DNA of 64,000 nt, from IMG/VR virus record IMGVR_UViG_3300009177_000720; one strand, written 5' to 3'. This stretch comes from a virus. The position numbers and the translations under genes are program-made. Below the pieces are notes generated by a model that was given only the letters and a program-made list of their open reading frames with translations, did no database searches and had not been told where the DNA came from. This document shows, piece by piece, positions 16,450-18,995 of this stretch (its first letter is position 1; every line of letters starts with the position of its first letter).

Positions 16450-16523
16450 TGGGGTCCATGTGGGAGTCGAACCCACGACCAGAGAATTTAGAGGTCTCTG
16501 CTCTGCCGCTGAGCTAATGGACC
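16450..16523 (-). tRNA. amber-suppressor tRNA (anticodon CUA), copy 1
   Basis: GGTCCAT-TA-GCTC AGCGGCA GAGC-A-GAGAC CTCTAAA TTCTC-TGGTC-GTGGG TTCGACT CCCAC-ATGGACC-CCA. Confidence 0.9.
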
Positions 16524-16529
16524 TAATTC

Positions 16530-16643
16530 CTACTTGGTTTCTTCGGCTTGACGATTTTCCAAGTAATTCTCGGTTACGCGCCAAACAACGCCAACCACCG
16601 TACCAATAACAACAGAAATTCCAAACAATGTTAATACGACCAT
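16530..16643 (-). CDS. 37-aa single-TM protein ending in TAG
   Basis: GAGG SD; MVVLTLFGISVVIGTVVGVVWRVTENYLENRQAEETK*. Confidence 0.65.
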   Translation of the reverse strand: MVVLTLFGISVVIGTVVGVVWRVTENYLENRQAEETK

Positions 16644-16669
16644 GATAACCTCACTTACTTAATATATAG

Positions 16670-16741
16670 CGCTTCCGGGGAATCCTGACATCCCAACCGT
16701 GCGTTTTAGAGACGCCCGCTCTTCCTTTGAGCTACGGAAGC
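16670..16741 (-). tRNA. amber-anticodon (CUA) tRNA, copy 2, non-canonical T-loop, no encoded CCA
   Basis: GCTTCCG-TA-GCTC AAAGGAA GAGC-G-GGCGT CTCTAAA ACGCA-CGGTT-GGGAT GTCAGGA TTCCC-CGGAAGC-G. Confidence 0.8.
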
Positions 16742-16746
16742 AAAAT

Positions 16747-17169
16747 TCATCCATGTCCTTCTTGGGTTGGATCCCAACCTGCATGATTCTGAGGTCGACA
16801 TTCACCAGGACATTTAGAACAGATATTTCTAAACAAACCATACTCGCGTCTATTATGCTCCCAAATGCCCGCCAACTGAGCCTTGATATCTTTTTCTGAA
16901 AAAAGGTCGCCTAGTTCCTGCACCGCCTCAGTGTAAGCATCATCGTGCATGTGCGCAAGTTTAATGATAGCTTTACGTACACGATTCAAATCGCCTACAG
17001 CTAACATCTCTGCTCTTCCACAGCCCCAATGCCAATCAACATTTTGATCAGACTCTTTGGCCACAGCCTGTGTCCACTCTTCCATAAGCACAGAACTAAT
17101 GGTATGAGTTAAGAAAACAGTATGACCATGATCGTAAATTTCCTGATTACATCTAGCGGTACTCATCAT
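16747..17169 (-). CDS. hypothetical protein
   Basis: 140-aa ORF; VDWHWGCGR, C-terminal CxxCxxxC. Confidence 0.7.
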   Translation of the reverse strand: MMSTARCNQEIYDHGHTVFLTHTISSVLMEEWTQAVAKESDQNVDWHWGCGRAEMLAVGDLNRVRKAIIKLAHMHDDAYTEAVQELGDLFSEKDIKAQLAGIWEHNRREYGLFRNICSKCPGECRPQNHAGWDPTQEGHG

Positions 17170-17453
17170 CGATCTAACTCTTTATAATTTGGGTTCCAAC
17201 GATATTGGATATCAGATTCTATTTGTTTTTCTAACATCCCAGCAGTTACTAATTCATCCAGAAAATTGTAAAGAGCATTGCTGAGAGGATTGGAAGACCA
17301 CATGACGCCTTTGACGCCATGCCAATGGTCCTCTCCCGGAGGAGCGCCCATGTCTGGCCAGAATCCGAGACAGGCTCCCAAATGGAAGGCAGCGAGATCC
17401 CAGTCAGTCCAACCAGTTAATCTTTCTTTCAAATCAGCATTGCTCTTTAACAT
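17166..17453 (-). CDS. hypothetical protein
   Basis: 95-aa Trp-rich ORF with GAGG SD. Confidence 0.7.
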   Translation of the reverse strand: MLKSNADLKERLTGWTDWDLAAFHLGACLGFWPDMGAPPGEDHWHGVKGVMWSSNPLSNALYNFLDELVTAGMLEKQIESDIQYRWNPNYKELDR

Positions 17454-17464
17454 TTTTCCTCAAT

Positions 17465-17590
17465 TGGAGAGCCAGGTGGGATTCGCACCGCACATTCTCC
17501 AGTTTATCATAACTGGTGCTTCATCATCGGCTACTGTCTGCATATGCCACGTTCGCATACCGTTTTTCGCCCTCATTTAGCTACCGGCTC
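17465..17590 (-). ncRNA. tRNA-like RNA with ~50-nt D-loop insertion and 8-nt anticodon loop (GAU/Ile-like)
   Basis: Acceptor GAGCCGG/CTGGCTC+T+CCA, TAGCT...AGC D-stem, CCAGT-TATGATAA-ACTGG, T-arm with TGCGAAT loop; 126 nt. Confidence 0.75.
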
Positions 17591-17602
17591 TTAGATTCTA
17601 TA

Positions 17603-17947
17603 TCAACTTTTTAATGCAAGTTGAAGTCGGCTACACAACTTCTTACTCTTAGGTCCAGGGGCCAAAGCAATAGCTGTGATTTGATCCTCAATATCAGGTT
17701 CTCTAAAAATAGAAAATTTGATATCCTGTTGAACAGCCATTGAAATCAAATCTTGCAATTCAATTTCGTTGGCTACAGAAAGAAGACCTAGATAGTTTGA
17801 TTGCTCAAACCATTGTCGATCCACCTCGGGATGCTCGGCAGTAAACTGGCGCAAAGCATGCATTGACTGCACTGCTTGGTAGCCAGGATCCAAATCCGAA
17901 CGAGTAATCACATACAACTTATCGCCCTCTTTAATCTATAGAGACAT
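17603..17947 (-). CDS. Pth2-type peptidyl-tRNA hydrolase with in-frame TAG at codon 4
   Basis: KLYVITRSDLDPGYQAVQSMHA...FREPDIEDQITAIAL; AGGAG-5nt-ATG TCT CTA TAG ATT AAA is in frame with the ORF-track TTG at 17917. Confidence 0.85.
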
Positions 17948-18524
17948 TGTTACTCCTAAATAACTTTTGGCAAATAGCTTTGCCACGCTTGTTGATTTGA
18001 TTCCATTTGATTTTAAAGGAGGTGGAATCGGTACCCCCAAACATCTTAGCGTTGGCATGAACTTCAGCCAGCCCAGCTAGAAGAAGAGTGCAAGCTTCAG
18101 GATAAGTAATGAACTCATCGATGTCGCAAGCCTTCATGGTATGAATCATCATATCCATCTTCATAAGCTTGGCAGCCGCACAACTACCTCCCACTTCCAG
18201 CCATGTCTTGGATGAGATGTCAGCATGGTTAGGAAAATGAGTTCTACCATTCTCATCGATTGACTTACAATAAGGCTTACCACAATCGTGATAAATTGTA
18301 TACTCCTCGATGATATCCTGAGGCAGGAGGGCGCTAAGAATTTGTTGATTGTATTCCGAAAGCCAATCAGGCAATCTCCAGTCTCCTGTGATTTGACCGG
18401 TTTTCAAATAATCAATCAATTGAAAAATATGCTCTTTAACCGAGAGACCATGCTGGAAAATAGACTGGCCTTTGGCTTGTTCACATTGTTGCATGTCTTG
18501 GATGAGTTGAAGCTAGGAGGGCAT
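17931..18524 (-). CDS. HD-domain phosphohydrolase with in-frame TAG at codon 4
   Basis: QSIFQH...YHDCGKP...HFPNHA; GGAGG-9nt-ATG CCC TCC TAG CTT CAA is in frame with the ORF-track ATG at 18494. Confidence 0.82.
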
Positions 18525-18525
18525 G

Positions 18526-18891
18526 TTAGAGTGCCTCCGATAGCCAAGCATTAACATCGGCTAATGTTGGGTTGTAGCTTCCAAGATGGGGTGCCCACTT
18601 TGGTGCATGTGCCTGAATAATTTGAAAGACCAAATCGGCTCTTGGAAGATTATCCTTAGCACATGCTCGCTCCACTGCATGATATGCCACGCCTCTCAAA
18701 AAGGCATAGGCTAGCAAGTGATGGCGGATATCAATTCCAACAACACGCTTGCGGGAAGCCAAGTTCCAAACGGCTTCTTCCTTCTTTGCTTTAAGAATAC
18801 GGTTCCTTGCTTTCCTTGATTCAATAGCAAGTCCCTTAATTTTACCAATCAATACAAACTTCGAATAACTGTGTTTCAGTGCGTTTTTCAT
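18526..18891 (-). CDS. basic hypothetical protein, first gene of the amber-gated operon
   Basis: AGGAG-7nt-ATG at 18891; RHHLLAYAFLRGVAYHAVE motif. Confidence 0.8.
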   Translation of the reverse strand: MKNALKHSYSKFVLIGKIKGLAIESRKARNRILKAKKEEAVWNLASRKRVVGIDIRHHLLAYAFLRGVAYHAVERACAKDNLPRADLVFQIIQAHAPKWAPHLGSYNPTLADVNAWLSEAL

Positions 18892-18995
18892 TTTACATCT
18901 CCTATAGTTACAAAACAAACAAATACGGTTAAGGTTTGTTTTAAACCAGGAGGTGCACGTGAACCAATCTATAGATAATCAGATAGCGTCTTCAT
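18888..18995 (-). promoter_or_regulatory. leader ORF with internal TAG, RAPP arrest motif and SD-sequestering hairpin (putative translational attenuator)
   Basis: MKTLSDYL*IGSRAPPGLKQTLTVFVCFVTIGDVK*; TAG 18971-18969; RAPP 18959-18948; hairpin 18952-18899; TGA overlaps the next ATG. Confidence 0.75.

Follow-up and report, generated by a model that had tools for sequence, protein, structure and literature searches.

An operon on the minus strand of a 64,000-nt stretch of the viral record IMGVR_UViG_3300009177_000720 (the window; operon positions 18995 to 16452) is very probably a translational lock, to which the phage's own amber-suppressor tRNA would be the key. The operon comprises a leader open reading frame (ORF), a gene for a basic 121-residue protein, genes for an HD-superfamily phosphohydrolase and a Pth2-like peptidyl-tRNA hydrolase, an odd tRNA-like RNA, small genes and two tRNAs with CUA anticodons, and in-frame TAG codons stand in the leader, the HD gene and the Pth2 gene. 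These features had been listed in an earlier note on this DNA, and ORF, ARAGORN, Rfam and Pfam searches find all of them in place on the minus strand. Sequence comparison with related loci demonstrates conserved in-frame stops, an absence of alternative starts (firm for Pth2, less so for HD), a match between stop and anticodon, a standard code elsewhere and a predicted hairpin at the end of the leader.

Conserved amber codons at the start of the HD and Pth2 genes

The HD gene (17931-18524) begins at ATG 18524, which has GGAGG 9 nt upstream, and its fourth codon is TAG (18515-18513), in frame with an internal ATG at 18494. The Pth2-like gene (17603-17947), whose start overlaps the end of the HD gene, begins at ATG 17947 with AGGAG 5 nt upstream; its fourth codon is likewise TAG (17938-17936), in frame with TTG 17917. 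Within a single window such an arrangement is common, as 22 of the 97 ORFs have TAG as the first in-frame stop on their 5' side, preceded in 12 of these 22 by an ATG. The series 'ATG, few codons, TAG, start' is thus not rare, and its significance comes solely from relatives. Once these are compared, the sequences indicate that the TAG pattern is genuine and far outside what chance would produce.

All 12 close HD loci (60-88% identity) keep the TAG in the same place, with an ATG 1-7 codons earlier. The six or seven codons after the TAG vary synonymously while the peptide x-x-L-I-x-D-M is retained, and the Asp codon ahead of the internal Met alternates just between GAC and GAT. Among the close Pth2 loci, 11 of 14 keep the TAG in position. 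A profile-based search extends the HD set to 80 loci with 37-87% identity and 22-61% GC, 68 of which have Pth2 on the same strand. These wider loci are incompletely dereplicated and include several near-identical contigs, so the counts are of loci and not of independent events, and the 48 distinct HD N termini are the better measure.

The wider set answers the question raised in the earlier note of whether the TAGs are fixed in position while flanking codons drift. The order ATG, 1-8 codons, TAG, 5-16 codons and a conserved Met is present in 58 of the 80 HD loci, with TGA as the stop in a further 2 and TAA in none; for Pth2 the corresponding figures are 52 TAG, 1 TGA and 0 TAA in 68 loci. Taken together, these start-proximal stops, which we call gates, number 113 (110 TAG, 3 TGA, 0 TAA). 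The base 3' of the stop is always a purine in the Pth2 gates (A 38, G 15), and in the HD gates it is A in 31, G in 10 and C in 7. A purine in this position is the classical context for efficient suppression, as Bossi reportedly described in 1983.

Relatives that lack the TAG (P0094 and P0108) have the same N-terminal extension of the HD protein, encoded in sense codons, and TAG-less homologues have I, L, T or M at the gate position. In an AlphaFold2 model of the HD protein, residues 4-13 form part of the first helix, and the predicted local distance difference test (pLDDT) score is 89 for the first block. By conservation and modelling, the segment after the HD stop is kept as protein sequence.

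In public protein sets (P0003, P0005, P0007, P0011 and others) the HD proteins have Gln at the TAG position; the gene callers used code 15 on short contigs, and the P0011 translation is flagged 'with_TAG=Q'. This Gln is a gene-caller convention and no evidence for glutamine.

Alternative start codons

Initiation downstream of the gates, at TTG 17917 or ATG 18494 and independently of suppression, was the outcome that the earlier note had set against its own proposal. For Pth2 this start is excluded by comparison of sequences: TTG 17917 is an internal leucine codon and not a start, because in relatives it is CTA, CTT or CTC, and neither ATG, GTG nor TTG follows the stop in 41 of the 53 gated Pth2 genes. 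For HD, a start at ATG 18494 is only unlikely. Of the 48 distinct HD genes with a gate, 25 have a Shine-Dalgarno sequence before the upstream (gate) ATG and none has one before the internal ATG, the segment ahead of the internal Met is conserved and modelled as helix, and in one homologue (L175) GTA replaces the internal Met codon.

A leader ORF with a stop-gated proline motif

The leader ORF (18888-18995) runs from ATG 18995 to a TGA (18890-18888) that overlaps the ATG of the 121-residue protein gene (18526-18891), which would be the gene controlled by the leader switch. It encodes M-K-T-L-S-D-Y-L, then TAG as codon 9 (18971-18969), then I-G-S and R-A-P-P (18959-18948), and continues to the TGA. 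The internal TAG, reported in the earlier note for the window, is also conserved in relatives: every lineage that has the 121-residue protein gene has the pattern ATG, 3-8 codons, TAG, 3-5 codons, R-(A/S/G/D)-P-P, after which the leader either stops immediately or runs on to a stop that overlaps the next ATG. The motif is RAPP in the window and in L001, L002, L004, L017, L199 and L204, RGPP in L024-L026, RSPP in L011 and RDPP in L200. A regular-expression scan of both strands of 2.6 Mb matches at leader sites only, and the stop is always TAG.

RAPP and RGPP cause robust ribosome arrest that is not relieved by EF-P, and bacterial proteomes avoid them (PMC12992588, PMC10951233). The two Pro codons of the leader, CCU CCU (CCC once), also constitute the anti-Shine-Dalgarno sequence CCUCC. 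In the window, a predicted hairpin (18899-18953) pairs CUCC of these codons (18953-18948) with GGAG (18902-18899) of the 121-residue protein gene, and would hide its Shine-Dalgarno sequence. Local minimum-free-energy folds pair GGAG with the same four Pro-Pro bases in all eight of eight lineages, and the sequence of the inner stem varies by lineage. The leader Arg is invariant, suggesting a constraint on the peptide, and the first Pro codon is always CCU, suggesting a constraint on the RNA; both levels seem to be constrained. The 12 residues ahead of RAPP (M-K-T-L-S-D-Y-L-x-I-G-S) include no hydrophobic segment and thus no export signal. From its sequence, and by analogy with known arrest peptides, the leader would be an attenuator in which a stop codon gates an arrest peptide that probably stalls the ribosome, a more specific reading than that of the earlier note.

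Suppressor tRNAs and the identity of the stop codon

The two tRNA(CUA) of the window are of different classes. Class A (16452-16523) is detected by both ARAGORN and Rfam; it has a canonical cloverleaf with a short variable loop and scores 60.5 bits, above the RF00005 gathering score of 29 bits. It is 73-81% identical to a tRNA(CUA) in the same place in the relatives G2, G4 and G5, and 82% identical over 71 nt to the tRNA-Sup of phage XacN1. Class B (16670-16741; Rfam 39.9 bits, missed by ARAGORN) has a 9-nt T loop, discriminator G, a short variable arm and no encoded CCA, and diverges faster than class A. Its orthologues are found in G2 and in L001/L002, and the counterparts in G3-G5 are assigned by their position beside class A and not by best match.

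A nearest-neighbour comparison with 217 phage tRNAs reveals no clear parent tRNA for either class, the closest sense tRNAs being Val and Lys for class A (about 73%) and Arg for class B (about 70%). The ARAGORN label tRNA-Pyl reflects the CUA anticodon only. The class A discriminator is C in the window and A in three relatives (G2 173183, G4 144437, G5 163289), and the acceptor stem is GGUCCAU in the window and GCGCCGN in those relatives. These differences suggest that lineages may differ in the enzyme that charges this tRNA.

A tRNA(CUA) lies 0.3-3 kb downstream of HD-Pth2 at nearly every close locus, in one or two copies, and within 4 kb at 42 of the 80 wider HD loci. The earlier note had asked whether such tRNAs co-occur with the locked genes; they accompany HD and Pth2, and the type of stop covaries with the anticodon. 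At locus L169 (IMGVR_UViG_3300036781_000418) both HD and Pth2 have TGA in place of TAG, and two tRNA(UCA) are located about 2.9 kb upstream, so that, by its sequence, the lock of L169 is of the opal type. The leader of the 121-residue homologue in L024 and L025 can reach RGPP only by a +1 shift at TGAA, in one four-base step, and Pth2 has no stop lock. Each of these two loci has a tRNA with the 8-nt anticodon loop AUUUCAAC (UUCA) together with a second tRNA that has a UCA/UUCA-type loop; in L024 these features are at 5400-5500 and 7738-7896, and L025 is likewise arranged. Judged from these loci, lock and key co-vary, TGA with UCA and TGAA with UUCA.

The standard code outside the operon

The earlier note had interpreted the TAG codons as local and not as genome-wide recoding, and this holds by ORF coverage as well as by comparison of genomes. 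Reading TAG as sense raises coverage of the window only from 93.3% (standard code) to 93.8%. In a complete relative, G002 (480,838 bp), the values are 94.2% and 95.0%, and no 20-kb bin is rescued. A phage tRNA(CUA) is present, as in phages recoded to code 15 (TAG as Gln), and the many TAG-broken genes with restored coding density that also mark those phages are not found here. TAG ends 79 of 1723 long ORFs (about 4.6%). In the window the TAG-terminated genes are as few as had been counted by eye in the earlier note, namely four real ORFs of at least 60 residues and a 37-residue ORF among about 95 genes, and nowhere else in the window does a TAG interrupt a gene.

Our first genome-wide screens for conserved TAG codons were swamped by wrong-frame and intergenic conservation between close relatives, and were replaced by an all-frame BLAST with frame competition in which divergent genomes were required. 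This covered five genomes, for which four whole relatives were fetched. An in-frame TAG is kept in every comparison in HD and Pth2 only. A conserved TAG at 55176-55178, upstream of the gene at 54582-55148, was rejected: relatives have no ATG preceding it, the conserved codons contain a GGAG Shine-Dalgarno sequence, and G3 has Ser at this position.

Proteins encoded by the operon

Downstream of the stop the HD gene is under purifying selection and its HD-motif residues are invariant. Across 13 homologues (61-78% identity) the metal-binding residues H25, H32, H79-D80 (in FHDCGKP), H100, D124, H128 and H156 do not vary. Before dereplication, homologues of the HD protein number roughly 600. The AlphaFold2 model (pLDDT 92) is closest in VIA-align to the HD domain of a class II tRNA nucleotidyltransferase (3wfo_A; Z 14.7, root-mean-square deviation 3.2, 160 residues aligned to chain positions 249-448), followed by the HD domain of bacterial GlyRS beta (8ie2_H, Z 12.1) and by PhnZ, PgpH, PPX/GppA, SpoT and YfbR at Z 8-10.5. 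A profile search against the PDB also finds 3wfo/3wfp, through the HDxGKP region (E 8e-4). Foldseek with the model against the PDB gives no match at E <=0.001, its best being the same 3wfo at E 3.6e-3. The protein matches no Pfam family at E <=0.01 and, in PHROG, only family 14850, whose function is not known. By fold and motif it is thus assigned to the HD superfamily, though to no named sequence family, and in the model comparisons its two best fold matches are both tRNA-binding HD domains.

The Pth2-like protein matches Pfam PF01981 with 28.2 bits (cutoff 23, E 2.4e-6), the match extending over residues 1-92 of the TTG-started form and profile positions 3-104 of 115, and belongs to PHROG 1866 (E 1.4e-13). 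Its sequence suggests that it would act on the acyl end of tRNA. HD and Pth2 are fused into one ORF in XacN1, which argues for a joint function. The 121-residue protein is basic and has 87 homologues, all unnamed. AlphaFold2 predicts a helical hairpin (pLDDT 92); the protein has no Pfam or PHROG family and no informative fold match (best Z 7.4, to generic helical hairpins; Foldseek E > 0.9).

Genomic context

The remaining elements of the operon lie between Pth2 and the class A tRNA. The odd tRNA-like RNA (17468-17591) was delineated by Rfam and RNAfold. In Rfam, 17468-17540 scores 28.2 bits, slightly short of the gathering score. The RNA has an acceptor stem, an anticodon arm with GAU in an 8-nt loop and a T arm, and the D arm is replaced by an insert of about 50 nt that folds into a separate hairpin; in the RNAfold prediction the acceptor stem has 9 bp and spans 17468-17591. 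The L001 orthologue (6900-7030) has a normal 7-nt loop; the insert is conserved, with compensatory changes in its hairpin. Next come genes for proteins of 95 (17166-17453) and 140 residues (16747-17169), neither of which has an assigned function or an in-frame stop, then the class B tRNA, and directly 5' of the class A tRNA a hydrophobic 37-residue ORF that ends in TAG (16530-16643).

Upstream of the leader, a promoter-like box GATATATAA (19003-19011) is found 7 nt 5' of the leader ATG, and the block ACTGGATATATAA is conserved in L001, L002 and L017. The GATATATAA 9-mer occurs three times in the window (19003-19011, 33349-33357 and 58319-58327, all on the minus strand), each time 6-14 nt before an ATG. 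This placement does not exceed that in shuffled sequences, GATATATAW shows no enrichment, and a scan of the operon for promoters and terminators gives nothing above shuffles. The leader ATG has no Shine-Dalgarno sequence, so that a leaderless mRNA, or one with very little sequence 5' of the ATG, may be made, in which case the box may be its promoter.

The operon is flanked by translation genes on the same strand (21241-22178 and 14865-15490), comprising four tRNA-Thr genes, a gene for transfer-messenger RNA (tmRNA), tRNA-Arg(CCU) and an IF3-like gene, and this neighbourhood is kept in relatives. Between the suppressor tRNAs and the IF3-like gene is an HNH endonuclease gene (15796-16263, minus strand; PHROG 5200, E 9e-55), one of the few genes with a TAG terminator. 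The tmRNA (21241-21596) is of the one-piece type with the tag ANDNAFAPVALAA. A second tRNA array at 62090-62696 contains five Arg and two Glu tRNAs. The window as a whole has 41% GC, bears almost all of its genes on one strand and contains 14 tRNA genes in addition to the tmRNA and IF3-like genes. It looks like part of a huge phage, and its relatives include IMG/VR contigs of up to 572 kb. In a blastn search of the window against GenBank phages a tRNA was the sole match.

Proposed mechanism and alternative explanations

We propose that ribosomes start at the Shine-Dalgarno-led ATGs 18524 (HD) and 17947 (Pth2) and reach UAG as the fourth codon. Where RF1 wins, only a tripeptide would be released; where a charged tRNA(CUA) from 16452-16523 or 16670-16741 decodes the UAG, the full-length enzyme would be made. 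In the leader, a ribosome would reach Arg-Ala-Pro-Pro, three codons on, solely after UAG readthrough. With UAG in the A site, the leading edge of the ribosome would be about 9 nt past the stop and short of the helix, so readthrough would be needed to enter it. A ribosome at RAPP would unwind the CCUCC anti-Shine-Dalgarno sequence and probably stall there, so that another ribosome could bind the freed AGGAG of the 121-residue protein gene, in the manner of SecM and secA. Because all three frames would need UAG readthrough, their output should follow the ratio of active suppressor tRNA to RF1, making the operon a coherent feed-forward gate or timer. Here we infer that readthrough occurs, that RAPP stalls ribosomes in so short a context, that operon and tRNAs are expressed together, and in which order expression proceeds. 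As to purpose, we guess that a phosphohydrolase resembling the HD domain of the CCA-adding enzyme and a peptidyl-tRNA hydrolase, which would both act on tRNA 3' ends, are permitted only once the phage tRNA supply works.

Several observations weigh against this proposal. At 29 TAG-gated HD loci no suppressor tRNA is found within 4 kb, although their keys may lie elsewhere in the genome or have been missed by ARAGORN. Conversely, 14 ungated HD genes are still within 4 kb of a tRNA(CUA) (L130, L131, L139-L141, L155-L157, L167, L168, L179, L182, L186 and L189, many with locked Pth2 neighbours), suggesting that the link of HD and Pth2 to the suppressor is older and wider than any one lock, and that the tRNA may also serve some purpose other than opening these locks. 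The HD gene retains an ATG 5-16 codons past the stop in 79 of the 80 loci, so initiation independent of suppression is possible to some degree, and an AGAGG stands 8 nt ahead of the TTG in the window Pth2. For leaders aligned by MAFFT, RNAalifold gave no consensus structure, MAFFT having misaligned the Shine-Dalgarno sequence; the hairpin comes from single-sequence folds, and the z-score of the 131-nt leader fold is only -1.5. The nascent chain at the RAPP site is just 15 residues long, shorter than in the arrest peptides that have been studied. Tails past TAG terminators are not shorter than those past TAA or TGA (Mann-Whitney p 0.96), and there is no sign of selection against strong suppression. 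Finally, the logic of a positive gate on possible repair enzymes is not obvious.

Several of these observations would fit a scheme in which ATG-x-x-TAG is a real three-codon upstream ORF, the enzymes are made from a downstream start by reinitiation or by independent initiation, no suppression takes place and the tRNA(CUA) adjoins for another reason. Besides the retained HD ATG and the TTG with its AGAGG, such a scheme gains from the ungated homologues, in which the start Met stands roughly where gated genes have the stop, making the gate look like a short ORF added in front. We nevertheless regard reinitiation as improbable, since most gated Pth2 genes and the HD gene of L175 have no start codon past the stop, none of the 48 HD genes has a Shine-Dalgarno sequence before the internal ATG, and the codons from stop to Met are conserved as protein and form part of the modelled fold. 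Moreover, any stop would serve for reinitiation, yet TAA is absent from all 113 gates and the rare TGA and TGAA variants are accompanied by matching tRNAs. The gates might instead sense RF1 or termination independently of a phage tRNA, with UAG passed by near-cognate host tRNAs or by escape from termination when RF1 is depleted or damaged, and would then report the state of host translation, for example during defence. The 29 loci with no nearby suppressor would suit such a sensor. UAG is read only by RF1, and when the nascent chain is very short, termination works poorly and peptidyl-tRNA readily drops off, as with the lambda bar minigenes, yielding the substrate of Pth. We give this explanation little credence, because it does not predict that the type of stop tracks the neighbouring anticodon (TGA with UCA, TGAA with UUCA), and a four-base step is impassable without a dedicated tRNA. 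It is compatible with the suppressor-keyed lock in that readthrough would be set by the balance between tRNA and RF1 in either case.

If TAG were reassigned throughout the genome (code 15), or in a block of late genes outside the window, the two locked genes would be its visible part. A phage tRNA(CUA) is a hallmark of TAG-recoded phages (bioRxiv 10.1101/2021.08.26.457843), TAG is a rare terminator here, and gene callers picked code 15 for some short contigs, P0011 among them. Reassignment is nonetheless very improbable given that coverage is so similar under the two codes in both the window and G002, that an in-frame TAG is retained across the five genomes in HD and Pth2 only, and that TAG still terminates ORFs. 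The chance that the TAGs are incidental, sequencing errors or inactivating mutations in recent pseudogenes is negligible. The frequency with which TAG is the nearest upstream in-frame stop in the window speaks for such an origin; however, more than 100 loci, recovered from independent metagenomes, and three cultured phages have the stop in the same place, and purifying selection acts on the downstream genes, with no variation in the HD-motif residues. The near-exclusive use of TAG at the gates also contrasts with its share among the window ORFs (22 of 97) and among stop trinucleotides (about one quarter per strand). Judged by these sequence comparisons, an origin by chance or pseudogene formation is already refuted.

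Cultured phages and related systems

Homologues of the HD protein occur in 29 GenBank phage records. In XacN1 (L191, AP018399.1 around 243730-244595), ORF364 is the HD-Pth2 fusion; its annotated start is the internal Met, and an in-frame ATG-AAA-TAG is located upstream. RsoM2USA_91 has M-K-S-TAG at its N terminus. In GAP32 (L192, JN882285.1 290461-291027), GAP32_398, 398A and 399 look like pieces of one HD gene, with the TAG at about codon 48 and not N-terminal, and a 'Sup-tRNA' 2.3 kb downstream of the split gene; other Rak2-like phages have the same split annotation. By their sequences, the cultured phages XacN1, RsoM2USA and GAP32 share the lock design. The XacN1 paper looked for readthrough at gene ends only and did not identify targets of the amber-suppressor tRNAs (PMC5852040). 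The TAG upstream of ORF364, at codon 3, is a candidate target for the two CUA suppressor tRNAs of this phage. Full-text literature searches returned no description of natural start-proximal stop locks or of stop-gated arrest leaders in phages.

Programmed readthrough is familiar from the Q-beta A1 protein and from gag-pol of murine leukaemia virus (MuLV), where the stop is at the end of a complete protein, readthrough adds a C-terminal extension and host near-cognate tRNAs decode the stop. As in the operon, an in-frame stop is followed by conserved coding sequence and the fraction of readthrough sets the amount of protein. By contrast, the stop of the operon is at the extreme N terminus, nothing useful would be made without readthrough, and the virus supplies a cognate tRNA. 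Frameshift-suppressor tRNAs with 8-nt anticodon loops (sufD, sufJ and quadruplet decoders) are laboratory mutants or engineered, whereas the L024 and L025 tRNAs beside the TGAA leader would be natural, conserved and provided with a defined target; the window itself has a plain UAG.

Recoded phages, in which TAG is read as Gln (code 15) or TGA as Trp (code 4), resemble the operon in that a phage suppressor tRNA reads in-gene stops in a standard-code host, and recoding has been proposed to time gene expression post-transcriptionally (bioRxiv 10.1101/2021.08.26.457843). Their stops number in the hundreds and fall in structural and lysis genes, so that coding density collapses under code 11, whereas here a standard-code genome has one stop 1-8 codons past the start in each of two or three genes beside the tRNA, and the lock can also be TGA or TGAA. 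The leader resembles ApdA, ApdP, ApcA, Streptomyces upstream ORFs and SecM-secA in being a small upstream ORF with Arg-Ala/Gly-Pro-Pro at or near its end and in the predicted hairpin, which would hold the downstream Shine-Dalgarno sequence until opened by a ribosome on the motif (PMC10951233, PMC7897499, PMC12992588). Those peptides are monitoring substrates, relieved of arrest when they are secreted or inserted into the membrane. The leader described here has no signal sequence and about 16 codons to the motif, and this would be reachable only past UAG (or TGAA), so that its input would be suppressor activity.

The orphan suppressor tRNAs of XacN1 (PMC5852040) and GAP32 are of the same tRNA(CUA) kind, in jumbo phages that use the standard code. 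In a synthetic 'leak dampener' feed-forward loop, an early amber codon in the target gene allows expression only with a co-regulated suppressor tRNA (PMC7969014). That loop was engineered in E. coli; the operon would be its natural counterpart, with three locks and an arrest-peptide stage.

Implications

On balance we lean towards a broader interpretation in which the suppressor tRNA is a regulatory molecule, the single key to an operon with three locks (two start-proximal stops and a stop-gated RAPP leader), and in which the lock can evolve between UAG, UGA and UGAA with the key changing alongside. Such a circuit would measure suppressor against release factor, release enzymes of tRNA 3' ends when the phage tRNA system runs, and explain the orphan suppressors of XacN1, RsoM2USA and GAP32. 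For XacN1, where the targets have been an open question, the candidate is a TAG hidden upstream of a mis-annotated start.

The comparison also exposes systematic annotation errors, namely truncated starts, genes split at TAG (GAP32_398/398A/399) and Gln from code-15 calls on short contigs. The hypothesis is directly testable in cultured phage-host pairs. If it is true, the operon is a natural gene switch keyed by a tRNA, with the same circuit as the synthetic one (PMC7969014), and RAPP/RGPP arrest would respond here not to protein export but to a new input, the suppression of a stop codon or the decoding of a quadruplet. For genetic-code expansion, tRNAs that naturally decode quadruplets at a defined target would be of interest. 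The lock-and-key design is kept in dozens of distant phages and would give the orphan suppressor tRNAs of jumbo phages a target.

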